In this document: positions 3 to 38,231 of the stretch, piece after piece
Numbering within the stretch: the first letter of the stretch is position 1
Layout: the number at the start of each line of letters is the position of its first letter
Virus record (IMG/VR): IMGVR_UViG_3300028603_000039
Span: 6,076-70,075 of that record
Source of the DNA: a virus
Taxonomy: Duplodnaviria; Caudoviricetes
Strand: one strand, 5' to 3'
DNA length: 64,000 bases
Notes under the pieces: model-generated
What the model was told of the DNA's origin: nothing
The model's input: the letters and a program-made list of their open reading frames with translations, nothing else
Databases searched by the model: none
Made by a program: the position numbers and the translations under genes

Positions 3-3000
3 AGGCAACCGTCTACCATAGAGGTAAAGTGTTGTAGACCTAGGCTAGATGCTGATATCAATTACATAATATCTCATTTGCCCCCAAAAACCATTCTTGT
101 ATTTGGTGCAATTGCTAAAAAGGAAATGCAACGCATCTTAAAGTCTAACCCCTCCTACGAGAAAATCCCCATTGCTACATTCGACCATCCTGCATACATA
201 CTTCGCAATAGGCACTTGGAACCTCGGTATGTAGCACAGTTGCATAACCACATGAAGTCCATATTTGGTAATAGCAGTACGGTAAGTGTAGAAGAGAAAT
301 TTGTTACCTATACTGACAACCTTAAACATCAGTTTGTAGAGGATGCTTATAGTTCTAAAAACGTTGGTGTAGATATTGAAACTAATAGTTTAAATGTGTT
401 TAGTTTGTCTTTTATTATAGGAACTATAGCAGTTAGTTGTGATAAGTTTACATATTTCTTTGATTGCAGGGAAAAAGATATTAAGGAGTACGATGTATTG
501 GTTGACTTCCTGCAATCAGATAAGGTTCAGAAAGTTTTTGCGGATATACTATTTGATGTTGTTGCTTTGGCACAATATAATATAAAAGTAAGAAATTATT
601 CAGATTTGTTTCCGTTGGCCTTTATATACGATAATACATACAACGAGTATGGATTAGAGGCAATTAGTATGAGGTACATGCCAGACTTGGCTGGGTACAA
701 GTCTAAATTCAAGTCTTCTTTGGTAGAGCATGATTATTTAGGGGCTCCAACCGAAGAACTAAAGCGCTATAATGCCTACGACTCTTACATGACGCGTATG
801 TTGTACAACTACATCTACGACCGTCTGGATGTTAAAGCAAAGACTATATTTGAGAAAATTACTGTAAAGTTGTTGCCGGTACTTGTAGTGTTGAAATGTT
901 CTGGCATGAAAATAGACGCTGACTTGTTGGATCAATATACGGGTATATTCAAAGGCAGGATAGACGAACTTTCTAAATATTTTAATGATAAATATGGGGT
1001 AACCAACATAAATTCTACGCCCCAAATAAGTAAGTGGTTGTTTGAGACGCTGAAGCTTAAACCTATAAAATATAATGATCTAACTGCTACACAAAAAGCA
1101 AAGGGACAGAAGAAGGGATCTCCGTCTACGGATAAGGAGGTACTTGAGGCATACGCTAACGAGGTGCCAGATGTCAATCCGCTTTATGAGGCACGTAGGG
1201 TGACCAATGTGCTTACTTACTTTTTGCCGTCCATTAAAGAAAGTTTGGATGATAGAGACATAGTGCATCCAAACTTTAAACATTATGGTATACAAAGCTT
1301 CCGTTTAGCCTGTAAAGCACCGCCGCTTCAGGGAATTCCGCGTGATGAAACTAAGAGCGAATTTTTAAATCAGTATCCGTTACGCAGGTTGTTTGTAGCT
1401 AGGTTTAGTGACTCGTATATATTGGAGTGTGACTTCTCGCAACAGGAAGTCAGGATTGTTGCTGAATTGGCTCGTGATAAAGGCATGATGGATACATTTG
1501 CCAAGAACGAAGACATTCACAAGTTTGTTGGATCTCTGGTTTTTGAGAAGCCAATAGATCAGATAACTAAGTTTGAGCGTCAGATTGCAAAAGGTTGCGT
1601 GTTTGGTGCAATTTTTGGGGCATCGGCAAAAGAAATGAGTGTTAGGTTGCATATGCCAGAGAAGCAGGCACAGACGTATTTAAATAAATTTGTAGATGCG
1701 TTTCCGAGTGTTAGTGACTACCTCGCCCTACAACACAGGGCAGTTAAGAAGAACGGTGTAATTCATACGGTACTTGGCAGACCGCGAAAGTTTTTGATAG
1801 ATTCTAATAGCAGATCTGCTATTGCTGATGCGGAACGCGAAGCTGCGAATCACTGTTTTCATTGGGATACTCGTGTGCTTTTAGAGGGCGGTGCTTCAAA
1901 GACAATCAAGGAAATTGTAGATAAAAAGCTTTCTGTTAAAGTTGCTTCGGTGAACAGTGCTACAAATAAAATTGAATTTAAACGAGTAGTGAATTGGTTT
2001 AAGAATGAATACAAGGATCCTCGGTGGTTGCGTGTAAATGTACAAGGTAGCAATGGTAAACATGGAGCGGTGTGTACACCAGATCATAGATATTACACTT
2101 CACGTGGTGTGGTGGAGGCTAAGAATTTGAGAGTTGGTGATATGTTATATACGAATTACTTACATATTCCGTCTACCACATGTGAACAAATAATTCTTGG
2201 CAGTTTGCTTGGTGATGGTGGTATAAGCATGAGTAATGGTGTACGATTGTATATGACGCATTGTAATAAACAACGATCTTATTTAGAGTACAAGTGCAGT
2301 ATATTACAACCTTATATTGGTGGTAAAGTATCAAAAGGTGTTGCTGGTCTTAAAAGTTTTAAGCCTGGCAATATAATGTGGAATTATCGTTCGAATGTGC
2401 ATTGGAACCTTGCCGAGTATTATAATTTAAAATACCCTAATCTTGGTGTAAAGGATATAGTTAATAAAATAAGTTGGCTTGGGTTGGCTATATGGTATCA
2501 GGATGATGGGGGTTTGTGTCGTAGTAGGCACAATGTGGGGCGTAGATCTCATCACAGAGAAGGTTGGAGGCAGTTTATAAGGATTCATACAGAAAGTTTT
2601 AGTTTTGACGAGTCGATCCTGCTTGCAGAACTGCTAAATAAAAAATTTGGGTTGAAGTTGTATGTACGCAAGAGAAAATGTCACGGGGTGGTTGTTCCTG
2701 TGGTTGAAATGTATAGTAAACAACATTTAAAGGTGTTCTTTGATAATATTAAAATGCATATTCACCCTGGTTTGAAGTATAAACTGCCAACTACCTATTG
2801 TAATTCTAAATTTGATGGTGGCAGTGGTGGCAATGTTGCTAGAGTTCCGGCGTTGGTTAAGTGTGTTGGTATAACTGAGGTTTGTTATTCAAATGACAAA
2901 CGTAGGGGTTATTTAGATGCTTGTAAACACAAAACTAAATACAATATTGAGGTTGAAGATAACCACAATTATTTTGTAGGAGGAGGTGCTAAATACTTTT

Positions 3001-3320
3001 GTTTAGTTAAAAATTGCATTCAATCACTAGGTGCTGACATTTCCTTCCTATCCCTTATAAAAATACATGATAAATTGGTTGCAGATGGGGTGTTATACAA
3101 TGGTGTTTTTATTATAAATACTATACACGATTCTATACTGTTTGATGTGAGACGCCAATACTTAAAGTATGTGTGCGATGAAATAGCGCCGATTATGACA
3201 GATGTGCCAAAGATGCTAGGGTTTAAGGTTAAGTTTCCTGTGGATATAAAGGTAGGCAAGCGCTGGGGTGAGTCACTGAAATTGGAGGATATACTAAAAC
3301 AAGAGGTTGAAAGTGCCTAA
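3..3320 (+). CDS. polA: Family A DNA polymerase with N-terminal UDG-like domain, 3'-5' exonuclease and an intein; 5' end lies outside the window
   Basis: Frame is open from base 3 (RQPSTIEVKCCRPRLDADINYIISHLPPKTILVFGAIA...FDHPAYILRN, family-4 UDG-like). Exo motifs VDIET, FD, YNAYD. Pol motifs DFSQQEVR (A), RQIAKGCVFGAIFG (B), IHDS (C). Confidence 0.93.
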   Translation, partial: RQPSTIEVKCCRPRLDADINYIISHLPPKTILVFGAIAKKEMQRILKSNPSYEKIPIATFDHPAYILRNRHLEPRYVAQLHNHMKSIFGNSSTVSVEEKFVTYTDNLKHQFVEDAYSSKNVGVDIETNSLNVFSLSFIIGTIAVSCDKFTYFFDCREKDIKEYDVLVDFLQSDKVQKVFADILFDVVALAQYNIKVRNYSDLFPLAFIYDNTYNEYGLEAISMRYMPDLAGYKSKFKSSLVEHDYLGAPTEELKRYNAYDSYMTRMLYNYIYDRLDVKAKTIFEKITVKLLPVLVVLKCSGMKIDADLLDQYTGIFKGRIDELSKYFNDKYGVTNINSTPQISKWLFETLKLKPIKYNDLTATQKAKGQKKGSPSTDKEVLEAYANEVPDVNPLYEARRVTNVLTYFLPSIKESLDDRDIVHPNFKHYGIQSFRLACKAPPLQGIPRDETKSEFLNQYPLRRLFVARFSDSYILECDFSQQEVRIVAELARDKGMMDTFAKNEDIHKFVGSLVFEKPIDQITKFERQIAKGCVFGAIFGASAKEMSVRLHMPEKQAQTYLNKFVDAFPSVSDYLALQHRAVKKNGVIHTVLGRPRKFLIDSNSRSAIADAEREAANHCFHWDTRVLLEGGASKTIKEIVDKKLSVKVASVNSATNKIEFKRVVNWFKNEYKDPRWLRVNVQGSNGKHGAVCTPDHRYYTSRGVVEAKNLRVGDMLYTNYLHIPSTTCEQIILGSLLGDGGISMSNGVRLYMTHCNKQRSYLEYKCSILQPYIGGKVSKGVAGLKSFKPGNIMWNYRSNVHWNLAEYYNLKYPNLGVKDIVNKISWLGLAIWYQDDGGLCRSRHNVGRRSHHREGWRQFIRIHTESFSFDESILLAELLNKKFGLKLYVRKRKCHGVVVPVVEMYSKQHLKVFFDNIKMHIHPGLKYKLPTTYCNSKFDGGSGGNVARVPALVKCVGITEVCYSNDKRRGYLDACKHKTKYNIEVEDNHNYFVGGGAKYFCLVKNCIQSLGADISFLSLIKIHDKLVADGVLYNGVFIINTIHDSILFDVRRQYLKYVCDEIAPIMTDVPKMLGFKVKFPVDIKVGKRWGESLKLEDILKQEVESA
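1854..3014 (+). mobile_element. Intein (387 aa) with LAGLIDADG homing endonuclease inside PolA
   Basis: Interrupts AEREAANH|CIQSLGAD. Begins CFHWDTRV and ends YNIEVEDNHNYFV...LVKN before a +1 Cys. Internal GSLLGDGG and AIWYQDDG blocks. Confidence 0.92.
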
Positions 3321-14871: not shown

Positions 14872-15096
14872 ATGAAGGTATGCACTAAGTGTAGACACAA
14901 AGGTTGGTCTACTGATAAGTTTTGTACAAAATGCGGCAATACATCTTTTGTAGACATTACTAAGTATTGCCCTGAATGCGGGTCTGTAATAATTTCTGGT
15001 GATTGGTTTTGTGGTCAATGTGGCAGGGTACTTGTTAAACCTATGCCGCACGTAGCTTGGGCGTTTGCACAACTTTTTGGGAGAAAGAAGGTATGA
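14872..15096 (+). CDS. Double zinc-ribbon protein
   Basis: Four CxxC pairs. Confidence 0.7.
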   Translation: MKVCTKCRHKGWSTDKFCTKCGNTSFVDITKYCPECGSVIISGDWFCGQCGRVLVKPMPHVAWAFAQLFGRKKV

Positions 15097-18056
15097 AGAT
15101 AGGAATATTTTCTGATCTGCAATTGCATTCTTGGCGTTCGTTTGGTATGTCTGATGATGATGTAATATCAAAGCGATTGCAAGATCAGATAAGCATCTTA
15201 AACCAAATACATACAATTGTTAAAGACAACCAGATTGACGTGCTTATATTTGGTGGGGATGGTTGGCATAAGCGCGGCGATATTCCTGTTGAATGTTTAA
15301 ATGTTTTAATTGATTGGTATGAGAAAATATCTAAAATATGTACAGTATTGCTCTGTCGTGGTAATCATGATTTATTTAATGATCGTAAGTACCATAAACT
15401 ATACGATGCTTTAAATATATTAGATCACGGAGCTTCTCAAACTGTAGGTCTTAACGGTACAAGCATCCGACTTGTTAACTACTATGATAACCCAGATTAT
15501 GATAAGATAAACCGAACTGATATAGTAGTATTACATAAGCAACCAGAAATGGTCAATGAATACGGTCACCATTTTGTTGGGGTGGATTGGAGTAAGCTGT
15601 CTGAGAATAATAGGTTAGTATTTTTCGGGCATTACCATAAGAGGATGCGCCTTGCTAATAACTGCTTTATAATTGGATCCCCCCTGCCATTAACTTTTGA
15701 TGATAAAGACGATAGGGGTATGTATATAGTAGACACAAATGGCCCCGGATCGAGCTTGTTATATGACCATGAGATTGTAAACGACTACGCTGTAGCATTT
15801 GTTAAGCTTGAATACCCCAAATTCCTTACTGTAGATGATTCAGCTAGCGTTGTACACGGAGACGGTAATTATTATAGAGTACTAAGTGCCACATCGAAAT
15901 CTGATGATGCAAATGTTATAAACGTGGTTAAACCAGAGTACTTCGATGAGCGTATTAAGTCTAACAACTTCAATGACGTAATACATGAGTGGTTGGCTAT
16001 TAATAAGTTGGATGATGCCTATTTGACTCCTTTGGATGGTATAATATCCGATAAGATACAATCTGTTAAAAAGTTGTTTGGTGGGCGTGCGTTTTCTGTA
16101 AAAGCCAAAAACTTCCTTTCCCTTGGCGATGTAAACTTAAAAATTGAAAATGGGTTTACCCTTATATCTGGTCTTAACCTAGATACTAACGATTCAAACG
16201 GATCAGGGAAGACTTCTTTGTTTGAGGCCATATACTGGTGTTTATTTGGGGAGACTACTAGGGGGTTGACTGGGGATGATGTTATACGTAGAGGTTGTAA
16301 GGATTGTTATGTAGAGCTTATATTAGATTGGCCTGAATATAATACATGCTATACTGTAAGCCGATCTAGGAAAGACGGGTTGTCTGTAACCCAACAAGAC
16401 GAAGTGGAGGCATGCGATTGTACTACTGGTTTGAAGCAAATAGATAGGCAACTTTTCCTTGAAGAGCAGGTACTTGGATTTGATAAGAATGTGTTTAAAT
16501 CCTCGTGTTATTTCTCTCAAGAGAATATACTCATGTTTACTAGTCTTTCTGATGTTGAAAAGACTAATATGCTTACTAAGTTGCTTGGGTTTGAGACATA
16601 TGTGGATTTGTATGAAGCTGTTTTTGATAAGATTAAAAAGTCCAACTTGGAAATTGAAAGGATTGAAAGAGATAAACAAGAAGCTGGCAATCAAATAAAA
16701 AATAACCAATCTAAAATAGAAATATTGGATAGGAACATAGCCAATTGTCAGTCTAATATAGCGCGCATTACATCTAGTATATCCGATTGTAAACAGTTGA
16801 TATTGGATATGGAGTCGTATGCAGATCTTCCCGTTGATGAAGTGGATTTTAGGTTGCTTATTGACCAGAAGAGTGTAGAAATAGAAGAGATTGAAAAGTT
16901 GGTAGAGGAATACGATCGTCAAATAGATGATCAGAAGACAAAGTATAATGAACTAAATAATAAGTTGATTCTGACCCGAGCAGAACGCAATGCAGCCATG
17001 TCTGAAATAGAAGTTAAGCGAAGCGAAATAAACAACCTGACTAGTAGTGAATCCAGTTTAGGAGAGAAGTGTGACAAGTGCGGTGCTGTAATAAGTAAGG
17101 ATAACATCGATGTGTTTGTCCAAGAAAAAGAAGAAGTGATTACCTTCTTTAACAAAGGTATAAAAGATATAGATGGTCGCATAGGCGCAATAACGAATGA
17201 GTTGCAGGATGTATCAAACAAAATTGCTGAACTTCAAAATACTCGATTGGGTATCGGTAATCGTTTAAGGGTTGCTCGTGCTGAGCTTAAGGATTTAAAT
17301 GATAAGCAAGTTCAACACCAAGCCAAAGTTGCACAGTTTAATAAGGACAAGGAATTGAGGGAATCAAAGATTTCTGGACAACGCGATTTGATTAATACTT
17401 ATCAAGCTCAAATCGGTATGTATACCACAGATATAGATAAGAGTCAAGGGGACAAAAATAAGTATACAGAGTTGATAGTTGAATGGGATAATAAGGCTTC
17501 CCAGTTGTCTCTTAACATTGAAGATATAAATAAAACTATTAATATTCTGGAGTTTTGGAAGAAATCTTTCTCGCCGTCTGGTATAAGAACGTTGCTTTTG
17601 GATAGGTTCTGCAATGAGTTTAACTCGGTTGTCAACGAGTACTTGTCTACAGTAAGTGCTGGTACCATGTCGATAACGGTCAGCCCAACCAAGACCTTAA
17701 AGTCAGGCGAAGAGCGTAACAAAATTGGATTAGATATTTACATGAATGGGGTACTAGTAAAGTATGAGTCGTTGTCTGGCGGTGAGAAGAGGCGGGTTGA
17801 CATATCAATATGTTTAACGATGAATAGGTGGGTACGTATGAAGTACCAGCTCAATCGTGGATTGTTAGGCATACTTATATTGGATGAGTTATTTGCATAT
17901 GTGGACGGATTGGGTGAGGAGACAATTGCTACTGTTCTTACAAACGAGGGGCTTGATAAGGCTGTATATGTTGTATCACATACGGCAGACTTAAATAGCT
18001 ACGGGGATAGGATGTTAACTGTGGTTAAGCGCAACGGGGTTTCGGAGTTATTATAG
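15093..18056 (+). CDS. SbcD/Mre11 nuclease fused to SbcC/Rad50 ATPase
   Basis: DLQLH, GD, GNHD, GHYH metallophosphoesterase motifs. Then KNFLS, Walker A NGSGKT, a coiled coil with CDKC hook, LSGGEKRR and ILDE. One uninterrupted frame. Confidence 0.9.
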   Translation: MKIGIFSDLQLHSWRSFGMSDDDVISKRLQDQISILNQIHTIVKDNQIDVLIFGGDGWHKRGDIPVECLNVLIDWYEKISKICTVLLCRGNHDLFNDRKYHKLYDALNILDHGASQTVGLNGTSIRLVNYYDNPDYDKINRTDIVVLHKQPEMVNEYGHHFVGVDWSKLSENNRLVFFGHYHKRMRLANNCFIIGSPLPLTFDDKDDRGMYIVDTNGPGSSLLYDHEIVNDYAVAFVKLEYPKFLTVDDSASVVHGDGNYYRVLSATSKSDDANVINVVKPEYFDERIKSNNFNDVIHEWLAINKLDDAYLTPLDGIISDKIQSVKKLFGGRAFSVKAKNFLSLGDVNLKIENGFTLISGLNLDTNDSNGSGKTSLFEAIYWCLFGETTRGLTGDDVIRRGCKDCYVELILDWPEYNTCYTVSRSRKDGLSVTQQDEVEACDCTTGLKQIDRQLFLEEQVLGFDKNVFKSSCYFSQENILMFTSLSDVEKTNMLTKLLGFETYVDLYEAVFDKIKKSNLEIERIERDKQEAGNQIKNNQSKIEILDRNIANCQSNIARITSSISDCKQLILDMESYADLPVDEVDFRLLIDQKSVEIEEIEKLVEEYDRQIDDQKTKYNELNNKLILTRAERNAAMSEIEVKRSEINNLTSSESSLGEKCDKCGAVISKDNIDVFVQEKEEVITFFNKGIKDIDGRIGAITNELQDVSNKIAELQNTRLGIGNRLRVARAELKDLNDKQVQHQAKVAQFNKDKELRESKISGQRDLINTYQAQIGMYTTDIDKSQGDKNKYTELIVEWDNKASQLSLNIEDINKTINILEFWKKSFSPSGIRTLLLDRFCNEFNSVVNEYLSTVSAGTMSITVSPTKTLKSGEERNKIGLDIYMNGVLVKYESLSGGEKRRVDISICLTMNRWVRMKYQLNRGLLGILILDELFAYVDGLGEETIATVLTNEGLDKAVYVVSHTADLNSYGDRMLTVVKRNGVSELL

Positions 18057-19483: not shown

Positions 19484-21856
<2,373 letters not shown>

Positions 21857-28945: not shown

Positions 28946-29482
28946 ATGAGTACGTTCTTTACTGCAGATACACACTTTAACCATGCTAATATTATTAAGT
29001 ATTGTAACCGCCCGTTTAAAGATGTAACGGAGATGAATGAGGTTATGATTAAAAATTGGAACGCTGTAGTTAAGTCAAATGATTCAGTTTATCATATAGG
29101 TGACTTTGCTTTTGGTGATTGTAAGTCTATTTTGGATAGGTTAAACGGGAAAATAACAATGATAGTGGGCAGCCACGATCGAGATGTATGGGCGTGTAAG
29201 TGGCGCTTTCAAGATATTGGGAAGTTAATTGAGATTAGGATTGATAGCCAACTAATAGTGTTGTGTCATTATGCCATGCGTGTGTGGTCTGCGTCACATT
29301 ATAATACATGGCATTTATTTGGACATTCTCACGGTCAGTTGGAACCGTTTGGCAAATCCTTTGATGTTGGTGTAGATACTAATGACTTTAAGCCGTACTC
29401 GTTTGAGGAAGTATGTAAAAAGATGGCAACGTTGTCAGATAACTTTAACTTGGTAAAGGGGGCGCGGTGTATAACAAAGTAA
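28946..29482 (+). CDS. Calcineurin-like metallophosphoesterase
   Basis: ADTHFNH, HIGDF, GSHD, GHSH. Confidence 0.88.
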   Translation: MSTFFTADTHFNHANIIKYCNRPFKDVTEMNEVMIKNWNAVVKSNDSVYHIGDFAFGDCKSILDRLNGKITMIVGSHDRDVWACKWRFQDIGKLIEIRIDSQLIVLCHYAMRVWSASHYNTWHLFGHSHGQLEPFGKSFDVGVDTNDFKPYSFEEVCKKMATLSDNFNLVKGARCITK

Positions 29483-30471
29483 GGGCTATAGTTGATCCAG
29501 TTTATCTTGTTGGTGGGTGTGTTCGGGATAAGTTGCTCGGGCTCACACCCAAGGACTACGACTTTGCCACGCCCCTCACCCCGGACGAAATAGAGGCAGC
29601 CATAAGGAAGGCTGGTAGGCGCCCTTATTTGGTTGGTAAAAGGTTTGGTACTATAGGGGTCAAGATAGACGGTGTAATGGTTGAGATAACTACCTTTAGG
29701 TCTGAACAATATGACCCAGATAACCGCAAGCCAAGGGTAGCGTTTGTTAAGGATATAACTGCCGACTTGAGCCGGCGCGATTTTACCATAAATGCTATAG
29801 CCAAGCGCGGGAGTAGAATAATAGATCCATTTGAGGGACACCTTGATTTGGAGGATAAAATAATAAGGTGCGTTGGCGAGCCCAAACACAGGTTTGACGA
29901 GGACCCGTTGCGTATGCTCAGAGCTGGACGGTTTGCCTCTCAGTTAGGGTTCGTTGTAGATGAACCTACAAAGAGAGCAACGCTTAATATGTCTTATAAA
30001 ATACTACACGTGAGCAAGGAACGTTGGATGATGGAATTAGATAAGCTTCTGGTGTGTGCAAACCCATCAGTTGGCTTAAACTTCTTGATGCATACTAGGT
30101 TGATGAATTATATGATACCAGAGTTGGCGTTGCAATTTCATTTTGACCAAGACAGCCCGTACCACGATTTGACTCTTTGGGATCATACTTTGCTAGTTGT
30201 CGATGCTTGCCCTGCAGATGTAAACTTAAGGTGGGCTGCATTAGTACACGATATAGCTAAGCCTTTTGTTAAGGCAAGGAATGACAAAGGGTACAGCAAC
30301 TACATACGCCATGACTATTTAGGGTATGACATGGTTAAGCGACTTGGTACGCATCTTAAGTGGTCAAAAGATAGGTTAAAGGTTGTAAGCGAATTGGTGC
30401 GCGATCACCTATTAGAGAGTAACCCTTTAAAGCCGTACGACGATGCGGCTAAAAGGCACATTGCAATATAA
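29467..30471 (+). CDS. cca: CCA-adding/poly(A) polymerase-family tRNA nucleotidyltransferase with HD domain
   Basis: LVGGCVRD, DYDFAT, RRDFTINAIA, EDPLRMLRA.RF, HDIAKP. Confidence 0.88.
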   Translation: MYNKVRAIVDPVYLVGGCVRDKLLGLTPKDYDFATPLTPDEIEAAIRKAGRRPYLVGKRFGTIGVKIDGVMVEITTFRSEQYDPDNRKPRVAFVKDITADLSRRDFTINAIAKRGSRIIDPFEGHLDLEDKIIRCVGEPKHRFDEDPLRMLRAGRFASQLGFVVDEPTKRATLNMSYKILHVSKERWMMELDKLLVCANPSVGLNFLMHTRLMNYMIPELALQFHFDQDSPYHDLTLWDHTLLVVDACPADVNLRWAALVHDIAKPFVKARNDKGYSNYIRHDYLGYDMVKRLGTHLKWSKDRLKVVSELVRDHLLESNPLKPYDDAAKRHIAI

Positions 30472-30484
30472 CCTATTAGAAGTA

Positions 30485-30513
30485 TTGACGTACTAGGCTG
30501 TGTGTGGTATAAT
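30485..30513 (+). promoter_or_regulatory. sigma70-type promoter
   Basis: TTGACG-N17-TATAAT with TGTGG. Confidence 0.8.
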
Positions 30514-30540
30514 GAACGTTAACATTACAAAGAGGAGAAA

Positions 30541-31626
30541 ATGACAACATTTAACTTGCCTAATGATCACCGACCGTATGCAGATAAGTACTTCCTGCGA
30601 TCGAAGGAAATACTTGAAAAGGAAGAGCTTAACCCTGTAGTTAAGTTGCAAGTCTTTGTTCGTAAGGGTATTTGCCAAATCTTTGGTATTGAAGAGGCGA
30701 TTGCTATACTTACGAAGTATTCAGATATAGAGAAGACTGGGCATGTTTATGCTCTCCCAGAGGGTGCGCCTATAGGCAATTGTGAAACTGTAATGCTAAT
30801 AGAGGCACCAATTCAAAGTATTATTGATCTTGAAACTATGTACTTGGGCGTTATCAGTGCTGAAACAACACTAAGGAACGGGGGTAAAGACGTAAACCTT
30901 GCTTCTATAGAAGCAACTATGCAATCTATTGTTGATAAGGTACCAGGTCGTCCAGTAATGTACTTTGGTGCTAGACACTGGCGGTATGATAGGGATATGG
31001 AAATAGCAGAGGCTTGCTTTAAAGGTGGAGCAAGCGATTGTTCTACTGATGCTGGTGCGGCTAATGTGTCCAAGCTCGGCGTTGGTACGATACCGCATGC
31101 ATTGGAGGCTGTTTATCATTGGAAATGCGGTATTGATCATGCAGTTATGGGATCGGTTTTGGCATTTAATAAATACATAGATAAGGACGTACCGCGCATT
31201 GCTTTGGTGGATTATGCTAATAAAGAGGTTTTAGATTCATTGGCTGTTGCTATTGAACTTGATGGAGAGTGCGGTATTAGGATAGATACATGCGGTGAAA
31301 ATTGGATGGAGGGTGTATTGCCTGCCTCTGATGCTGACAGAGGTGTATCCGAACGCGGTGTTTGGTTGGTACGCAAAATATTAAACGATGCTGGGTTTAA
31401 CGGCGTTAAAATAGTTCTATCTAGCGGATTTGCTAACCCCGATAAGGTAGAGAGGTTTGTTAAATTCGAACAAGAAACTGGAATGAAAATGTTTGATAGT
31501 TTAGGTGTAGGTCAGGTATTTGAGGCACGGTGTGCTACCGGGGATATTGTAGAGGTAGAAGGCATGGAAGTTCACAAAATTGGCAGACCTTATAAATCGA
31601 ATCACAGAATGGTACAGGTGTTTTGA
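30541..31626 (+). CDS. pncB: Nicotinate phosphoribosyltransferase-like (type II PRTase)
   Basis: DKYF, FGARH, GTIPHAL, LVDY, GIRIDT, IVLSSGF. Confidence 0.72.
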   Translation: MTTFNLPNDHRPYADKYFLRSKEILEKEELNPVVKLQVFVRKGICQIFGIEEAIAILTKYSDIEKTGHVYALPEGAPIGNCETVMLIEAPIQSIIDLETMYLGVISAETTLRNGGKDVNLASIEATMQSIVDKVPGRPVMYFGARHWRYDRDMEIAEACFKGGASDCSTDAGAANVSKLGVGTIPHALEAVYHWKCGIDHAVMGSVLAFNKYIDKDVPRIALVDYANKEVLDSLAVAIELDGECGIRIDTCGENWMEGVLPASDADRGVSERGVWLVRKILNDAGFNGVKIVLSSGFANPDKVERFVKFEQETGMKMFDSLGVGQVFEARCATGDIVEVEGMEVHKIGRPYKSNHRMVQVF

Positions 31627-31997
31627 TGGAAATTGTATGTATGCTAGAATGGTTCTTTGTTTTCGTATTTGGTCATTGTTTGGCCGATACAGCATTGCAA
31701 CCTGTTGCCATGGCAAAAGGTAAGAACAGACACACCCCTATTGACTTAAGTGTAGTCCCTAAAGGTCAAAAACCGTTGAAGCTTTGGGGTATGTGGATGA
31801 CTCACCACTCTATGATTCACGGTGGCGTAGTTTATTTGCTTACTGGAAGCTTTTTGTTTGGTGTAATGGAGGCAACAAGCCACTGGGCAATTGACTTCTT
31901 TAAGAGTGAGAGCAAGTACGACCCCTATGTAGATCAGGCCTTGCATTTAGGGATGAAGATAGTGTATATATCTATGATAGCTTGTGGTATAAAGTAA
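31623..31997 (+). CDS. DUF3307-like membrane protein (second copy)
   Basis: HCLADTALQ, HSMIH, HWAIDF.K, DQALH. Confidence 0.7.
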   Translation: MMEIVCMLEWFFVFVFGHCLADTALQPVAMAKGKNRHTPIDLSVVPKGQKPLKLWGMWMTHHSMIHGGVVYLLTGSFLFGVMEATSHWAIDFFKSESKYDPYVDQALHLGMKIVYISMIACGIK

Positions 31998-32007
31998 GGA
32001 GGGTACT

Positions 32008-32284
32008 GATGGTTAAAAAGTTGGTGTTGTTTTTGTTACTTAAAATCGCGGAAATTTTTGTTTTTGTTACGATGCCTTATTATATTGGAGAGCTATCGGG
32101 CATAGGTGGGGATCTAAACAATGTTTTTGTTTGTTGGTTGGCAGGGGCGTTTGTGTTAGTTGTATTGATGGTTGCATTAGTATGTATGTTAGGTGTTATT
32201 TACTTTATTTTGCGGTGGATAAACTTTAACTGGAAAATAGTTAATGGTGGTAAGGGCATTACTTGGATAGATAACATTATTTAA
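32008..32284 (+). CDS. Small membrane protein
   Basis: Hydrophobic helices; ATG after GGAGG. Confidence 0.55.
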
Positions 32285-32291
32285 TAAATAC

Positions 32292-32321
32292 TTGACAAAC
32301 CTAGGTTTTATGTGGTATAAT
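32292..32321 (+). promoter_or_regulatory. sigma70-type promoter heading the radical SAM operon
   Basis: TTGACA-N18-TATAAT with TGTGG. Confidence 0.85.
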
Positions 32322-32346
32322 GGTAGTACAATAGGGAGGTGACGAG

Positions 32347-33423
32347 ATGGCAAAAGGTACAACAGCTTTTATAATAGATTCAGAGAACCATAAGGTGCTG
32401 AGATCTGCAAATTACAATTATATGTTTGATCGTAAAACTGGAAACTTTGCAAGGTGGGGCAAGACAAGAGAGGACGATCCGCAGTTTGGTCCCTTTGGTC
32501 CAGAACTTATGGATATCGAAATAAGTACTATATGTAAAAAGGCTTGTAAGTGGTGTTATAAGTCCAATACATCGAAAGGTACTTATATGAGCTTTGATAC
32601 GTTTAAGAAGCTCTTTGCTAAATTTCCTAAGACGCTTACTCAAATAGCCTTTGGTATAGGTGACATCCGCGGCAACCCAGATATATGGAAGATTATGCAA
32701 TACTGCAGGGATAATAAGATTGTGCCTAATGTTACTATAAATGGTGATGGTATAACTAAGTCTATTGCCAAGAAGTTAGTTAGCGTTTGTGGAGCCATTG
32801 CAGTTTCCGATTATGGTGAAGTTTGCTATAAGACAGTAAAGCAGTTAACTGACCTTGGGCATACCCAAATAAATATTCACGCCTTGCTCTGCAATGAAAC
32901 ATATGACAATTGCTTTAAGCTTATCGATGACAGCATTTCTGATAAAAGGTTGGAAAAGTTGAATGCGATGGTTTTCTTGTGGCTTAAGCCCAAAGGCAAA
33001 CGCAATGTGTTTACTCCTATTAAGTCATTAGCAAAGTACAAGGCTTTAGTTGACTACGCCTTTTTAAATAAAGCACGTATTGGGTTTGATTCGTGTTCGG
33101 CGTCGTCCTTCCTAAAGACAATTGAAGATAGAGTAGACTATAAGCAAATAGCACAGATGGTTGAGCCGTGTGAAAGTACATTGTTTAGCTATTATATCAA
33201 TGTAGACGGGGTTGGTTATCCTTGTAGCTTTACTGAGGGCGAAGATGGGTTTAAAGGTATAAACGTCCTCAGATGTAAAGATTTTGTAAAGGGCGTATGG
33301 TATAACAAGGAAACTGTAAAGTTCAGGGCGCGGAATTGCAAGAATTGTAGGCAGTGCCAGGCATTTGACTTATCAGTAGAGGAGGATATTAAAGGTGAAG
33401 ACAAGGTCAGGGTTTGTAAGTAA
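32347..33423 (+). CDS. Radical SAM protein with C-terminal SPASM/twitch-like Cys domain
   Basis: CKKACKWC (CxxxCxxC); C-terminal CES...YINVDG..YPCSF...CKNCRQC. Confidence 0.88.
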   Translation: MAKGTTAFIIDSENHKVLRSANYNYMFDRKTGNFARWGKTREDDPQFGPFGPELMDIEISTICKKACKWCYKSNTSKGTYMSFDTFKKLFAKFPKTLTQIAFGIGDIRGNPDIWKIMQYCRDNKIVPNVTINGDGITKSIAKKLVSVCGAIAVSDYGEVCYKTVKQLTDLGHTQINIHALLCNETYDNCFKLIDDSISDKRLEKLNAMVFLWLKPKGKRNVFTPIKSLAKYKALVDYAFLNKARIGFDSCSASSFLKTIEDRVDYKQIAQMVEPCESTLFSYYINVDGVGYPCSFTEGEDGFKGINVLRCKDFVKGVWYNKETVKFRARNCKNCRQCQAFDLSVEEDIKGEDKVRVCK

Positions 33424-33718
33424 TTCATCTAGCGCCTCCTTTGTACTAGAGATACGTAAGCCGAGGGCAGAGGTGGAAGAACTTTTAAAAAGAGAGTTGC
33501 CAGATATCTTTGATTGCAGCAATTCAGTACAACAGGTTTTAGAATACTACGGTTATCGTGTTGGCACAAATGAATTTAGTGATTATACGATAAGCGGTTG
33601 GACTGTGATGTGGAATGACGATAGTGATATGGGTAGCGTTCTACAATCTATTGTAGGGCTTTTGAATACAAAATACAGGACTACTGTACCGCACAGATTG
33701 TTAATATACAACGATTAA
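33395..33718 (+). CDS. MKxRxGFVSNSS-family protein 1
   Basis: GTG start, MKTRSGFVSNSSSASF; overlaps the radical SAM 3' end. Confidence 0.8.
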   Translation: MKTRSGFVSNSSSASFVLEIRKPRAEVEELLKRELPDIFDCSNSVQQVLEYYGYRVGTNEFSDYTISGWTVMWNDDSDMGSVLQSIVGLLNTKYRTTVPHRLLIYND

Positions 33719-33730
33719 TTGAGGAGGATC

Positions 33731-34090
33731 ATGAAAACTAGGCAGGGTTTTGTATCAAATAGTTCAAGCAGTAGTTTCGTGTGCAATGTATACTCGGATC
33801 ACTTTAAGGTTACAGAGATGGGCGAGGTAAAGAAATGCCTTGTTAAGATGTTAAAATGCATGAAGATACTTGGGTTGATACGTCCTCGTACTAGGTTCTC
33901 AAGCGTGTTTCAAGAACCGAGGAGGGCAACCAAGGCGGATATAGCAGAACTGAATGACGGATGGGGTGCTGGGTTGGAGTATCACGAAGGCATGTTTCTT
34001 ATAAATAGTACTAGGGACAATTCCATACCTTATGCGTTCTTTGGTGTAATAGAAGACGCATTTGGTGCTCGTAGAGTACACCTAGGATAA
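33731..34090 (+). CDS. MKxRxGFVSNSS-family protein 2
   Basis: MKTRQGFVSNSSSSSF after GAGGAGG. Confidence 0.8.
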   Translation: MKTRQGFVSNSSSSSFVCNVYSDHFKVTEMGEVKKCLVKMLKCMKILGLIRPRTRFSSVFQEPRRATKADIAELNDGWGAGLEYHEGMFLINSTRDNSIPYAFFGVIEDAFGARRVHLG

Positions 34091-34105
34091 CGATCAGGAG
34101 GGACA

Positions 34106-34381
34106 ATGAAAATACGTATAGGGTTTGTATCGAATAGCAGTTCTAGTAGTTTTGTTATTCATAAATCTTATTTGAGCAAGAAACAACTTGATGAGCTAGA
34201 GGCTTTGTATACAAGGCTTGCTGATAACAAAGAATTGTATGATGATAGTGGAACGTACTTTACAAATGAAGAGAACTACGTAAGCTTTAATGCCTACGGA
34301 GGAAGCGGATACAAGGAACTTATAAGTTTTCTTGATAAAATAGGGATAACAGGTAACAAAATATACAGGGAGGGTCACTAA
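34106..34381 (+). CDS. MKxRxGFVSNSS-family protein 3
   Basis: MKIRIGFVSNSSSSSF. Confidence 0.8.
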   Translation: MKIRIGFVSNSSSSSFVIHKSYLSKKQLDELEALYTRLADNKELYDDSGTYFTNEENYVSFNAYGGSGYKELISFLDKIGITGNKIYREGH

Positions 34382-34749
34382 TGAAGATTAGACAAGGCTT
34401 TGTATCAAACAGTTCGTCAAGTAGTTATATCATTGTAGGTAGTAAGGTACCATTTAGCAGTGTAAACCCCAATAACTTTAAGTCTATTAAAATGATTCCC
34501 GAGCAAACAAGTGACGATGGGTATTATTTTGTGGATATGACCAAAGAGATCTACGATTACATCAAAGCCAACCCCGGTGTGGTGCGGTCTATCGACTTTT
34601 ACGACGTTGTAGCAGTTGGTGAGGAGGAACTGTCTATTGATAGGAGTAAACTTCCTAGCAAGGTACACATATTTGCTGCGGACGTTACCTATCATAATCC
34701 AGAAACGCTTGAGGATTTTAAGGAGATTGTAGAGGGAGGTATAGAGTAA
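34381..34749 (+). CDS. MKxRxGFVSNSS-family protein 4
   Basis: MKIRQGFVSNSSSSSY; TAATG overlap. Confidence 0.8.
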   Translation: MKIRQGFVSNSSSSSYIIVGSKVPFSSVNPNNFKSIKMIPEQTSDDGYYFVDMTKEIYDYIKANPGVVRSIDFYDVVAVGEEELSIDRSKLPSKVHIFAADVTYHNPETLEDFKEIVEGGIE

Positions 34750-35102
34750 TGAAAACGCGTATAGGGTTTGTTAGCAATTCAAGCACTACTAGTTTTTGCA
34801 TTTACGGAGCTTTTATTGACGGAGAGGATCAATATAAGGCGATGTGTAAGAGCTGTGGTATGGAGTACGATGCGGATACCTTTGAACTTTATGATATAAT
34901 AGATGATATATGTGAAAAAGTTGGGTTAACCTACCATATGGGGTATGATAGTGATGGAGTTTATATAGGAAAAGGCATGGAGCAGATGAAGGATAACGAA
35001 ACGTACGGTGCCTTTAAGAAGAACGTGCAAGATGCCTTAGAGAAGCTCCTTGGTGGCAAAGTTGAATGTAGTGTTATGCAGGAATCTTGGCAGGATGGTT
35101 AA
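34749..35102 (+). CDS. MKxRxGFVSNSS-family protein 5
   Basis: MKTRIGFVSNSSTTSF; TAATG overlap. Confidence 0.8.
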   Translation: MKTRIGFVSNSSTTSFCIYGAFIDGEDQYKAMCKSCGMEYDADTFELYDIIDDICEKVGLTYHMGYDSDGVYIGKGMEQMKDNETYGAFKKNVQDALEKLLGGKVECSVMQESWQDG

Positions 35103-35164
35103 TGGTTTAGCATAGGTTGCAATTAACGCGTGTTACGACAACTGTACAATGAGAGGAATTACAG

Positions 35165-35572
35165 ATGAACGCCAGAGTAGCGATGGCTCTTGACTTAGCA
35201 AGGTTTTGGCATCATGGTCAGAAGAGGGATGACGGTAGGGATTATATTGTTCATCTAGAAAACGTGCAACACTTGCTTGAATTGGTTGATGCTCCTTTGT
35301 ATGTGCAAATTGCTGGATGCTTGCACGACGTGCTTGAGGATACAGAATTTCCCAAACGCTCTGTAGCTAGGCAGTTTGGTAGTAGGGTGTTGGACTTAGT
35401 AATGCAGGTGACAAAGGAGCCAGTTACTGGCAAGTGTCCGGTGCGCGATTCAGAGGCTTGGCTAATAAAGTTGTGTGATGTAGCAGATAACTGTACTGAT
35501 ATGGGCGGTTGGTCTGAGCCGAGGTTGCGTAAGTATATAAAGAAAAAGAGGGACTTTTTAGGGTTGAAATGA
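35165..35572 (+). CDS. SpoT/Mesh1-like HD hydrolase (stand-alone)
   Basis: H.GQKR.DG..YI.H, LHDVLEDT, IKL.D..DN. Confidence 0.8.
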   Translation: MNARVAMALDLARFWHHGQKRDDGRDYIVHLENVQHLLELVDAPLYVQIAGCLHDVLEDTEFPKRSVARQFGSRVLDLVMQVTKEPVTGKCPVRDSEAWLIKLCDVADNCTDMGGWSEPRLRKYIKKKRDFLGLK

Positions 35573-36240
35573 CAAACAGGGACTATATTTTAAAAATAAG
35601 TGCTTTAAGTAAGCAGAGGCGGATTAAGAAAATTCTGTCCTGCATTACTAGAGACTACAAAATACAAACCGTCAGTCCATCGAGTCGGTCATTTCATACA
35701 TCGACTAAGCTTACAAACATTATAATCCCTGCTAAAGACCAGAAGAACAAGTTAACGCTTATGGCTCATCATGATGTTTATCCAAACTCGTATGGTTTTA
35801 ATGATAATAGTACTGGTGTTGTTACCTTACTAAGGTTGCAACGCGCTGTGCACGATAACGTAGAATTAGTATTTACAGATGGTGAGGAGTGTGGAGGTCA
35901 GGGTTGCCGGTACTACTTAGAAAACTATCCAAAACCAAAGGAGGCTATCAATGTAGATGTAGTTGGTTTAGGCAATAAGATCTTTTATGAGATGTACGGC
36001 GATTGCAGTTTTGTTATGCCACCGCATACGACAATGTATCAAGGAGTGCCGTTTAGTGATAGTTATGTCTTGGCTGATTATGGAGTACCGAACATACTGT
36101 TGCTTACTGGAAAGCACAGGAGTACTTTGATTGAAGATATTTTCCATGCAGAGCACTGCGGCAAGGATGACGGTAAGTTAGATTTGATCTCTGAGAATAT
36201 AATGAATGCAGTATCTGATGTGTTACTTGGGATGGTTTAA
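35569..36240 (+). CDS. M28-like zinc peptidase
   Basis: AHHD, NDNSTG, DGEE, VD, SD. Confidence 0.7.
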   Translation: MTNRDYILKISALSKQRRIKKILSCITRDYKIQTVSPSSRSFHTSTKLTNIIIPAKDQKNKLTLMAHHDVYPNSYGFNDNSTGVVTLLRLQRAVHDNVELVFTDGEECGGQGCRYYLENYPKPKEAINVDVVGLGNKIFYEMYGDCSFVMPPHTTMYQGVPFSDSYVLADYGVPNILLLTGKHRSTLIEDIFHAEHCGKDDGKLDLISENIMNAVSDVLLGMV

Positions 36241-36260
36241 CAAATAAAGGAGATGGCGAG

Positions 36261-36899
36261 ATGCGTACTATTTTTTGGAATGTAGATACCCAGATAGACT
36301 TTATGTTGCCGTATGGTGCCTTGTATATAAAAGGTGCAGAGTTGTTGATACCGAACTTGAAGAAGCTTACGGATTTTGCCAAAAAGCACAATATAGATGT
36401 TGTTAATACTGCAGATTACCACATGTCGAACTCATCTGAGATATCGTCTAGTCCAGATTGGAAAACTACCTTCCCAGCTCACTGCTTAGCTGGGTCAGAG
36501 AACAGCGAGTTTGTTGATGCAACTGCCCCTCAGAAACAAAAAAGGGAGAGTTATTATATAGTTAACTGGTCGGATAAGGATATCAACAAACCAAACTTGC
36601 TTAAGGCAAGGAATATAATTATATACAAAGACAAGTTCAATGTCTTTGACGGCAATCCGCATACGTGGGATGTAGTAAACTTGCTCAAGCCCAACACTAT
36701 AGTTGTATATGGTGTAGCTGGCGATGTTTGCGTTGACTTTGCTGTTATGGAACTAGCAAGGAAGAACTACACTGTCTTTGTAATAAAAGATGCTATCCAA
36801 CTGTTAAACAATGCTGGATGGAACGCCCTTAAAGATAAATGGGAGACTAAGGGGGTACGGTTGGTAGACACTGATGAGCTCCCTTTAGTAATTAAGTAA
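36261..36899 (+). CDS. pncA: Nicotinamidase/isochorismatase family
   Basis: VDTQIDFM, D.H, FPAHC, K..F, GVAGDVCV. Confidence 0.85.
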   Translation: MRTIFWNVDTQIDFMLPYGALYIKGAELLIPNLKKLTDFAKKHNIDVVNTADYHMSNSSEISSSPDWKTTFPAHCLAGSENSEFVDATAPQKQKRESYYIVNWSDKDINKPNLLKARNIIIYKDKFNVFDGNPHTWDVVNLLKPNTIVVYGVAGDVCVDFAVMELARKNYTVFVIKDAIQLLNNAGWNALKDKWETKGVRLVDTDELPLVIK

Positions 36900-36904
36900 T
36901 ATAC

Positions 36905-36934
36905 TTGACAAACTTATATTCTGTGTGGTATAAT
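36905..36934 (+). promoter_or_regulatory. sigma70-type promoter
   Basis: TTGACA-N18-TATAAT with TGTGG. Confidence 0.85.
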
Positions 36935-36959
36935 GGTTGTATAACAAGGAGATGACGAG

Positions 36960-38231
36960 ATGAAAGGTGTTTTTAATGTAAGCACACTTAAAGTTCCAGT
37001 TAAACTGTGGATAGAGTGGGAAGATCATTTTGAATATCCAAATGGAGATTTGGAATTCGTTTATGGTATAGAGGAATCGGCAAGGAGCCAAATAGTACGC
37101 CTTGCGTGCCTGCCTTTTGCCTTTCATCACGTAGCTATTATGCCTGATTGTCATACAGGGTATGGAATGCCTATTGGCGGAGTTTTGGCAACCGAAGGAG
37201 TTGTTATACCTAACGCCGTCGGAGTTGATATAGGTTGTGGTATGTGTGCTGTAAAGACCTCATTAAAAGTCGATCAACTCGATAAGGGTACCTTGGAAAG
37301 GATAGTGGGCAAAATACGAGAGGTTATTCCTGTCGGGTTTGAACATCACAAGGAAGACCAACCTGAATCATTTATGCCAGAATATGGCGGTTTGACTGGC
37401 ATAAAGGACGGAGTAGTTATTAAAGAATACAAGTCAGCGTTGCGCCAACTCGGCACTCTTGGTGGAGGCAACCACTTTATCGAGATACAGAAAGATACCA
37501 ATAACAACATATGGATAATGATTCATTCAGGTTCACGTAATCTCGGCTTTAAGGTTGCTGAACACTATAACTTGCTGGCTTATAATCTTAACAAGAGGTG
37601 GCATTCAAACACTTATTTGCCAACAAATCCAAAAGATTCATTGGCGTTCCTGCCTATTGAGAGCCAAGAAGCGAAGGACTATATGACAGAGATGAGGTAT
37701 TGCGTGGACTTTGCTTTGGCAAATAGGAAGCTGATGATGGATAGAATTATACAAATTCTTGTGCACGAAAATTTGTTTTACCAAAATTTCAATGGGTTAC
37801 AAGATACAAGGAATTCGTTCATTAACATAGCCCACAACTACGCCCAATGGGAGAATCACTTCGGTAAGAACGTTATTGTCCATCGCAAAGGTGCCACGTT
37901 GGCAAGGGAAGGTACGATGGGAATAATCCCTGGCTCACAAGGAAGTAGGTCCTATATAGTCAAGGGTAGAGGAAACAAAGACAGTTTCGAGTCTTGTTCA
38001 CACGGAGCAGGTAGAAAGATGGGAAGGAACGAGGCATGTAAGAAACTTGACTTGGCTACCGAGCAGAAGATACTTGACGATCAAGGCATAATACACGGAC
38101 TTTGCGATGTTGATAATCTTGATGAAGCAACGGGTGCGTATAAAGACATTGATGAAGTAATGAAGAACCAAGAAGATTTGGTTGAGATTGTAGAAACCTT
38201 GCATCCGCTAGCCGTAATCAAAGGGGGTTGA
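36960..38231 (+). CDS. rtcB: RtcB RNA ligase
   Basis: MPDCH.GYG.PIG, VGVDIGCG, GGGNHFIE, HSGSR, HN, HRKGA, SHGAGR, EA..AYKDI. Confidence 0.95.
   Translation: MKGVFNVSTLKVPVKLWIEWEDHFEYPNGDLEFVYGIEESARSQIVRLACLPFAFHHVAIMPDCHTGYGMPIGGVLATEGVVIPNAVGVDIGCGMCAVKTSLKVDQLDKGTLERIVGKIREVIPVGFEHHKEDQPESFMPEYGGLTGIKDGVVIKEYKSALRQLGTLGGGNHFIEIQKDTNNNIWIMIHSGSRNLGFKVAEHYNLLAYNLNKRWHSNTYLPTNPKDSLAFLPIESQEAKDYMTEMRYCVDFALANRKLMMDRIIQILVHENLFYQNFNGLQDTRNSFINIAHNYAQWENHFGKNVIVHRKGATLAREGTMGIIPGSQGSRSYIVKGRGNKDSFESCSHGAGRKMGRNEACKKLDLATEQKILDDQGIIHGLCDVDNLDEATGAYKDIDEVMKNQEDLVEIVETLHPLAVIKGG

Follow-up and report, generated by a model that had tools for sequence, protein, structure and literature searches.

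Anaerobic sulfatase-maturating enzymes (anSME, AtsB) are SPASM-type radical S-adenosylmethionine (SAM) enzymes which act on a serine or cysteine within a short conserved motif of whole proteins, with several substrates per enzyme and with neither a leader peptidase nor an exporter involved. The SPASM maturases of ribosomally synthesized and post-translationally modified peptides (RiPPs), including SuiB of streptide, SkfB, PqqE, MftC and the triceptide and dynobactin cyclases, work on a conserved N-terminal recognition sequence followed by a variable remainder, with several precursors per enzyme, and crosslinks from an aromatic residue to a C-beta on aromatic-x-Ser/Asn motifs are known in this group. 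The internal proteins of phage T4, in turn, are tandem, fast-changing small early proteins which have only a short N-terminal peptide in common. The locus described here, positions 32,292 to 35,102 of a 64,000-nucleotide stretch of phage DNA (positions 6,076 to 70,075 of IMG/VR record IMGVR_UViG_3300028603_000039; hereafter the window), recalls all of these systems, as it encodes one radical SAM enzyme followed by five small proteins with a common N-terminal peptide, hereafter the tag.

We propose, with a probability of roughly 0.6, that the enzyme modifies the N-terminal tail of the whole proteins encoded with it, so that the two would form a two-component protein-modification module. The pair is probably an undescribed protein-modification system, and our search of the literature found no published description of it.

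One enzyme gene and five tagged proteins

In the preliminary description of this DNA, made from its letters alone, one promoter, a radical SAM/SPASM-like gene and five overlapping or adjacent open reading frames (ORFs) had been recognized. All of them lie where they had been placed, and each of the five products begins with the motif that had been read there:

32292..32321, + strand: sigma-70-type early promoter, TTGACA and TATAAT separated by an 18-nucleotide spacer with a TG extension (12 of 12 consensus matches)
32347..33423, + strand: radical SAM enzyme of 358 amino acids (aa) with a SPASM/twitch-like C-terminal cluster domain, phrog_7293 family (Pfam and PHROG matches, invariant cysteines)
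33395..33718, + strand: motif protein 1, 107 aa, GTG start, overlapping the end of the enzyme gene by 29 nucleotides (N-terminal peptide)
33731..34090, + strand: motif protein 2, 119 aa, the sole basic body (isoelectric point, pI, 9.0; N-terminal peptide)
34106..34381, + strand: motif protein 3, 91 aa (N-terminal peptide)
34381..34749, + strand: motif protein 4, 122 aa, body without a relative among the loci fetched (N-terminal peptide)
34749..35102, + strand: motif protein 5, 117 aa, body family A2 (30 sequences), alpha/beta body modelled with a free N-terminal tail

The promoter is the only perfect site within positions 31500-36500. The five motif genes are tightly coupled, with two ATGA-type overlaps and a GGAGG-type ribosome-binding site before every one of them; for motif protein 2, it is the ATG rather than an upstream TTG that places the motif at residue 1.

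What the five products have in common is confined to residues 1-20, namely MKxRxGFVSNSSSxSF and two hydrophobic residues. M1, K2, R4, G6, F7, V8, S9, N10, S11, S12 and S15 are invariant in the five-protein alignment, and almost nothing is beyond them. The DNA that encodes this peptide is far less uniform: over the first 48 nucleotides the five genes share pairwise only 23-36, and in each gene pair 4-9 identical residues are encoded by different codons, including switches between TCN and AGY serine codons. Low nucleotide identity together with synonymous codon turnover points to purifying selection on the peptide, and not to a DNA repeat or gene conversion; a DNA-level repeat as the source of the shared start was ruled out by the heavy synonymous divergence. 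The unrelatedness of the bodies, likewise part of the preliminary description, holds at the sequence level, the five forming five separate BLAST components with a profile-profile probability of at most 2.9% between any two.

The phrog_7397 profile, a PHROG with no assigned function, matches all five products (E 5e-6 to 6e-3), mostly via residues 1 to 32-56, and on motif protein 5 the alignment spans residues 1-97. Further searches with the tagged proteins gave little. NCBIfam and PADLOC returned no match; Pfam gave just two chance-level matches, both on motif protein 5 (E 0.016 and 0.076) and far under the cut-offs. Megablast of the region and tblastn of motif protein 4 against cultured phages found no match, and a word-indexed search with motif protein 4 found only itself.

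In metagenome runs from landfill (X7, X9, X10), short contigs align to the window at 33731, 34105, 34380 and 34749 only over the ~45-55 nucleotides that encode the start of the motif. Among the contigs of four landfill runs compared, such short pieces, from other contigs and with flanks unlike the window, make up the main part. Since these contigs share the motif start and then diverge, many further tagged genes apparently coexist in the landfill habitat.

Recurrence of the tag and its linkage to the enzyme

Viral and prokaryotic stretches were scanned with a degenerate DNA pattern covering residues 1-13, and this N-terminus turned up in at least 260 ORFs of at least 120 viral stretches and in at least 179 ORFs of at least 120 prokaryotic stretches, a recurrence far above chance expectation, and many of the stretches listed carry tandem copies (2-9 per stretch). 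Positions which the search pattern did not impose are conserved as well (S14, S15, F16 and the two hydrophobic residues). A relaxed profile narrows the truly invariant core to aromatic-V-S-N-S-S: N10, S11 and S12 never vary among the relatives listed, whereas position 6, Gly in the window, can also be S, A, Y, F, K or C. A glycyl-radical protein with its activase was considered for the pair and ruled out, as Gly6 varies, the Arg spacing differs from R-V-x-G-aromatic and the enzyme is of the SPASM type.

The preliminary description had made its proposal depend on whether motif genes are linked to radical SAM genes across genomes. The enzyme-tag pairing is general: phages and bacteria alike show a strong link, whichever partner is taken as the starting point. 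Starting from the motif, an enzyme homologue, always on the same strand, lies in 50 of the 120 viral stretches listed (median 7.8 kb) and in 75 of the 120 prokaryotic ones. For 37 viral records without an enzyme in the fetched piece, a search of the whole record locates it elsewhere in 17, and in all six of those which are at least 90% complete. The reverse test started from 80 viral loci retrieved by enzyme alignment alone, of which 71 have motif ORFs within 10 kb of the enzyme by the strict motif and 75 by the relaxed profile; the five loci without motif genes are all on fragments which are 2-31% complete. Among the 289 motif genes around these enzymes, none is on the opposite strand and 241 are downstream of the enzyme. 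A third gene family conserved around the enzyme was not found, the commonest other family occurring in 8 of the 80 loci. A locus search seeded with a single enzyme sequence had found nothing.

The tag also varies with the enzyme. Where the enzyme is at least 38% identical to that of the window, residue 9 of the motif is Ser in 140 of 140 cases, and with more distant enzymes it is Thr in 50 of 60. Among cultured phages, the enzyme occurs in 173 records and one tagged protein in 175, in the same genera (Klebsiella, Enterobacter, Cronobacter, Citrobacter and Escherichia phages of the Slopekvirus/Pseudotevenvirus kind); because these belong to one lineage, we count them as one observation. In Klebsiella phage KM3, two motif genes lie ~20 kb from the enzyme gene. 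Overall, hundreds of phages carry the pair, as do bacterial immune operons.

It is improbable, on these data, that the tag serves some other machine, such as capsid packaging after the manner of the T4 internal proteins, proteolytic targeting or localisation, and that the radical SAM gene is merely co-inherited. The layout of the locus does resemble that of the T4 internal-protein loci, and in Slopekvirus the motif genes are not beside the enzyme. However, the linkage is maintained across phages on contigs of 30-550 kb, the tag variant follows the enzyme clade, and the pair is found in bacterial operons without a virion context. Furthermore, the tag carries neither a Glu-type prohead-protease site nor a hydrophobic signal core. 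In T4, by contrast, the shared peptide is a scaffold-binding signal cut by the prohead protease, and no enzyme gene is known to co-vary with it. An export tag, which the preliminary description had offered as an alternative, is also unlikely because no transporter or protease is conserved near the enzyme (none among the 80 viral loci) and the peptide does not resemble a signal peptide. A Sec, Tat or lipoprotein signal was ruled out, the tag having no hydrophobic core, RR pair or Cys.

In Slopekvirus phages, a homing endonuclease has been reported in or beside this enzyme gene (PMC9960720). In several phages, tblastn finds the enzyme gene in two segments with 0.7-1.9 kb between them (L065 8591-10325, L118 1427-3836, L008 1599-4461).

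Enzyme, predicted free tail and the proposed modification

The enzyme belongs to the radical SAM superfamily and, by its C-terminal Cys-rich auxiliary-cluster domain, to the SPASM/twitch subgroup. For the window enzyme itself, the Pfam models score below their cut-offs, both for Radical_SAM (PF04055; E 7e-6, 26.7 bits versus a cut-off of 29.5) and for SPASM (PF13186; E 0.045, 14.5 bits); homologues exceed them, for PF04055 for instance L126 at 57.3 bits and for SPASM at 34.1 and 41.2 bits, while phrog_7293 matches the window enzyme at 2e-82. The CxxxCxxC motif (C63/C67/C70) is invariant across 57 homologues, as are C250, C275, C293 and C337 near the C-terminus. Just these four C-terminal cysteines are invariant family-wide, where a full SPASM signature (two auxiliary clusters, as opposed to one in twitch) comprises seven, and the further Cys near C337 in the window enzyme are not conserved. 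The family comprises at least 2,854 sequence clusters, all generically named.

Against solved structures, the family profile finds SuiB first (1e-9, full length), followed by SkfB, BtrN and PqqE; it covers the catalytic and SPASM parts of SuiB from residue 135 on, and not its recognition domain. Curated models give only distant matches below threshold, of the tungsten-cofactor oxidoreductase, mycofactocin (MftC-type), NirJ, GeoRSP and WgkB types. Together, these matches place the enzyme in the protein- and peptide-modifying SPASM/twitch branch, within no characterized subfamily. Membership of the anSME family (TIGR03942) was rejected, with no match for the window enzyme and 23.3 bits for a bacterial relative versus a cut-off of 349.

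The likeness to known systems is thus partial. Unlike the sulfatase motif, the tag lacks C/S-x-P/A-x-R, there being no Pro/Ala-x-Arg after a Ser; it sits at the extreme N-terminus, and its bearers are not sulfatases. Among solved and curated proteins, the RiPP SPASM maturases come nearest by profile, but the enzyme stays below every curated family cut-off, has no RiPP recognition element (RRE) and has no protease, transporter or immunity gene nearby in the 80 loci. Moreover, what corresponds to the 'cores' is here, as modelled, a folded protein, 80-270 aa in length and in bacteria as much as 811 aa, and the conserved part is itself the likely target. An RRE-bearing RiPP maturase was accordingly set aside as a classification, with no PqqD-like element and no conserved leader peptidase or exporter.

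The bodies of the tagged proteins are diverse. In phages they measure 80-270 aa and are strongly acidic (median pI 4.45), 86% of them having a pI below 5 versus 15% of the window's other ORFs; some bacterial tagged proteins reach 811 aa. Structures were modelled with AlphaFold2 and family alignments for motif protein 5 (A2) and for A3, the family that accompanies the enzyme in bacteria and also occurs in phages. The A2 model (predicted local distance difference test, pLDDT, 81.7; predicted template modelling score, pTM, 0.72) has a first strand at residues 16-23 and an alpha/beta body, with residues 6-12 below 50 in pLDDT, and in the A3 model (pLDDT 86.7, pTM 0.82) residues 1-10 are below 50. 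In both, structure is absent from the first 10-15 residues, which are the best conserved, and strand 1 starts with the last part of the motif (S-S-F-hydrophobic). A tail that is predicted to be unstructured and yet is the most conserved part of the protein bears, in these models, the hallmark of a linear motif that another protein reads. No convincing solved relative was found for the motif protein 5 model by Foldseek against the PDB (best E 0.16) or for the A3 model by an exhaustive VIA search (best Z 3.2), and the Atlas shows unnamed viral clusters only.

Alternatively, the tagged proteins could be very diverged paralogues whose N-terminus is a structural or ligand-binding strand-loop, for instance a phosphate-binding loop, with the enzyme acting on a small molecule as viperin does. 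We regard this as highly improbable, even though strand 1 begins at the motif end in both models, A2 and A3 each contain a later conserved aromatic-x-Gly strand, and pVip models match the radical SAM core weakly. When 25 body clusters were compared by profile, only 3 of 300 pairs reached 80%, and the two largest families, A2 and A3, align to one another solely over residues 1-20. The topologies of their models differ, and residues 1-12, the most conserved, are the least structured. The SPASM matches of the enzyme's homologues lie above the cut-off, unlike viperin, and no viperin-type nucleotides were found for the radical SAM protein associated with Avs2 (PMC11564622). A flavodoxin-like or phosphate-loop strand was likewise dropped, the tail being disordered in the models.

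The foremost rival, albeit an unlikely one, takes the tail for a docking or adaptor tag. The small proteins would then remain unmodified and dock on the enzyme as a choice of targeting or regulatory subunits, the target differing from body to body. The identical linkage data fit this, a tail disordered in the models is what would be expected of a linear binding motif, and the conserved ~55-residue N-terminal extension of the enzyme (F27, G32, W37, G38) could bind a strand. Stable binding of an accessory protein to its partner is known from KpAvs2 (PMC11564622). Against docking stands the fact that the nearest characterized enzymes act upon the peptide they bind. The near-invariance of seven consecutive small polar residues also exceeds what docking usually needs, and around the enzyme, in the 80 viral loci, no gene for a candidate third-party substrate is conserved.

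For modification of the tail as the favoured reading, the argument rests on the two-way linkage, the co-variation of Ser9 and Thr9 with the enzyme, the synonymous turnover, the modelled free tail and the peptide-modifying relatives of the enzyme. The enzyme would contain a single SAM cluster plus one or more auxiliary Fe-S clusters and would recognize the first ~16 residues of the co-encoded proteins as a flexible tail, in which a basic start (M-K-x-R) precedes the aromatic-V-S-N-S-S core and, after it, the first beta-strand of each body. A 5'-deoxyadenosyl radical would then abstract hydrogen at one position of the invariant core, with a covalent change there as the outcome, for which Ser C-beta oxidation (anSME-like), an aromatic-to-C-beta crosslink (triceptide- or dynobactin-like) and epimerisation are candidate chemistries. 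One enzyme would thus act on an exchangeable set of substrates, of which this phage has five, and the modified tail would confer a common property on all bodies, which are unrelated, mostly acidic early proteins and probably effectors of host takeover or counter-defence. As to the earlier proposal of one maturase which tags a panel of small proteins by post-translational modification, it is supported, within the reach of comparative genomics, by the linkage, the SPASM/twitch branch and the predicted exposed tail, while the tail as substrate, its chemistry and the role of the bodies are what we infer.

Several points weigh against such a modification. The enzyme has no RRE, its ~55 residues before the cluster motif giving no PqqD-type Pfam match. 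No known chemistry can be assigned because the tag lacks any Cys, Lys-Trp or Tyr pair such as characterized SPASM enzymes use. In Slopekvirus, tagged genes and enzyme are ~20 kb apart, and shared descent could explain why tag variant and enzyme clade co-vary. Furthermore, Avap1, the radical SAM protein of the KpAvs2 operon, is dispensable against one phage (PMC11564622).

Should the tail indeed be modified by the enzyme, whole proteins would be subject to a new and very widespread type of post-translational modification, in viruses as well as in bacterial immune operons. It would unite a large class of phage early proteins, now all 'hypothetical', as one functional guild, and protein engineers would gain a short, genetically encodable tag that an enzyme modifies. 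Direct tests are possible, since in the Slopekvirus group cultured phages of Klebsiella and Enterobacter encode two tagged proteins along with a single enzyme.

Bacterial immune operons and the surroundings of the phage locus

In bacteria, the pair is found in a recurrent operon. At least 27 prokaryotic loci have the order Avs2-like STAND NTPase, a protein of ~120-140 aa, a tagged protein, the enzyme and, in some cases, an M1E1E6-like protein. The N-termini of the STAND proteins vary (trypsin-like, SMEK or membrane), and the same operon is present on plasmid pAt of Agrobacterium tumefaciens Ach5. Examples of STAND/tag/enzyme operons are:

L126, 1061-7997
L196, 627-6375
L170
L135
L321, 2583-7035

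In Acetatifactor muris, the operon adjoins an Avs1a-like MBL gene. The window itself has no STAND gene.

Two described immune systems come close to these operons. KpAvs2 works with the radical SAM protein Avap1, which is required against phage T2, and with the small receptor-binding protein Avap2, assigned to DUF6375 (Bechon et al. 2024, PMC11564622). The bacterial relatives of our pair directly follow Avs2-like STAND NTPases whose N-terminal effector domains vary, and KpAvs2, too, combines a non-viperin-like radical SAM accessory protein with a small receptor-binding one; this likeness is drawn from the published description. Unlike KpAvs2, the operons here comprise four genes (STAND, ~120-140 aa protein, tagged protein, enzyme), and no DUF6375 match turned up in the Avs2-like operons, in the A3 family or across 400 genomes from the class to which G042 belongs. 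Modules of an FxSxx-COOH peptide and a radical SAM/SPASM enzyme belong to STAND-linked conflict systems (Kaur et al. 2020, PMC7159879), and they resemble our loci in that a SPASM radical SAM gene stands beside variable proteins with one short conserved Phe/Ser piece, in association with STAND NTPase effectors. Their piece, however, lies at the C-terminus and is accompanied by a protease system for peptide processing, whereas the tag is N-terminal, in arrays and mainly in phages.

For Avs2-type defence operons, modification of the tail could explain what the radical SAM accessory gene does. A more speculative and rather doubtful extension holds that the modified tail marks a small subunit, accessory or regulatory, of Avs2-like receptors, and that phages copied enzyme and tag and diversified the bodies into arrays of modified decoys which bind the receptors and silence or misdirect them. 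We keep such mimicry open for the phage arrays because phage members of the bacterial body family A3 exist. Were it true, a new protein modification would be central to the immune conflict between phage and host, and the presence of a radical SAM gene in the KpAvs2 operon would be accounted for.

Several Bacillota loci (L162 4199-6634, L186, L231, L232, L185, L141, L233) carry the Thr9 form of the tag at the head of proteins of 700-811 aa, with a hydrophobic Gly/Ala-rich stretch directly after the tag and the enzyme gene adjoining. The L162 locus also adjoins a sensor kinase/AraC-type response regulator pair.

The source record of the phage locus is a 70-kb IMG/VR entry of a large uncultivated phage, estimated to be 39% complete and with every gene on the + strand. 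The 64-kb window is the replication and nucleotide-metabolism portion of its genome, and the stretch is present almost entire in landfill and groundwater metagenomes, while no RNA dataset is listed with it. On either side of the module (28946-31626 and 35165-38231, + strand), family scans identify a DUF3307 membrane protein, an HD_4 (RelA/SpoT-type) hydrolase and an M28-like peptidase. ORFs in the same flanks named only by eye are metallophosphoesterase-like, CCA-adding-enzyme-like, nicotinate/nicotinamide phosphoribosyltransferase-like and isochorismatase/nicotinamidase-like, along with RtcB. Partly from these by-eye names, the flanks look like a neighbourhood of tRNA repair and NAD salvage.

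Elsewhere in the window, all on the + strand, an ORF at 3533-4588 matches phrog_1211 (adenylosuccinate-synthetase-like, of the PurZ kind; E 7e-49), which suggests that adenine may be replaced by 2-aminoadenine in the phage DNA. Within the DNA polymerase ORF at 78-3320, a LAGLIDADG homing-endonuclease match covers residues 703-834 and is probably an intein or an inserted endonuclease. A GroEL-type phage chaperonin (phrog_5725, E 7e-178) is encoded at 20205-21830, and a single ORF of 999 aa at 15057-18056 fuses SbcD-like and SbcC-like parts.

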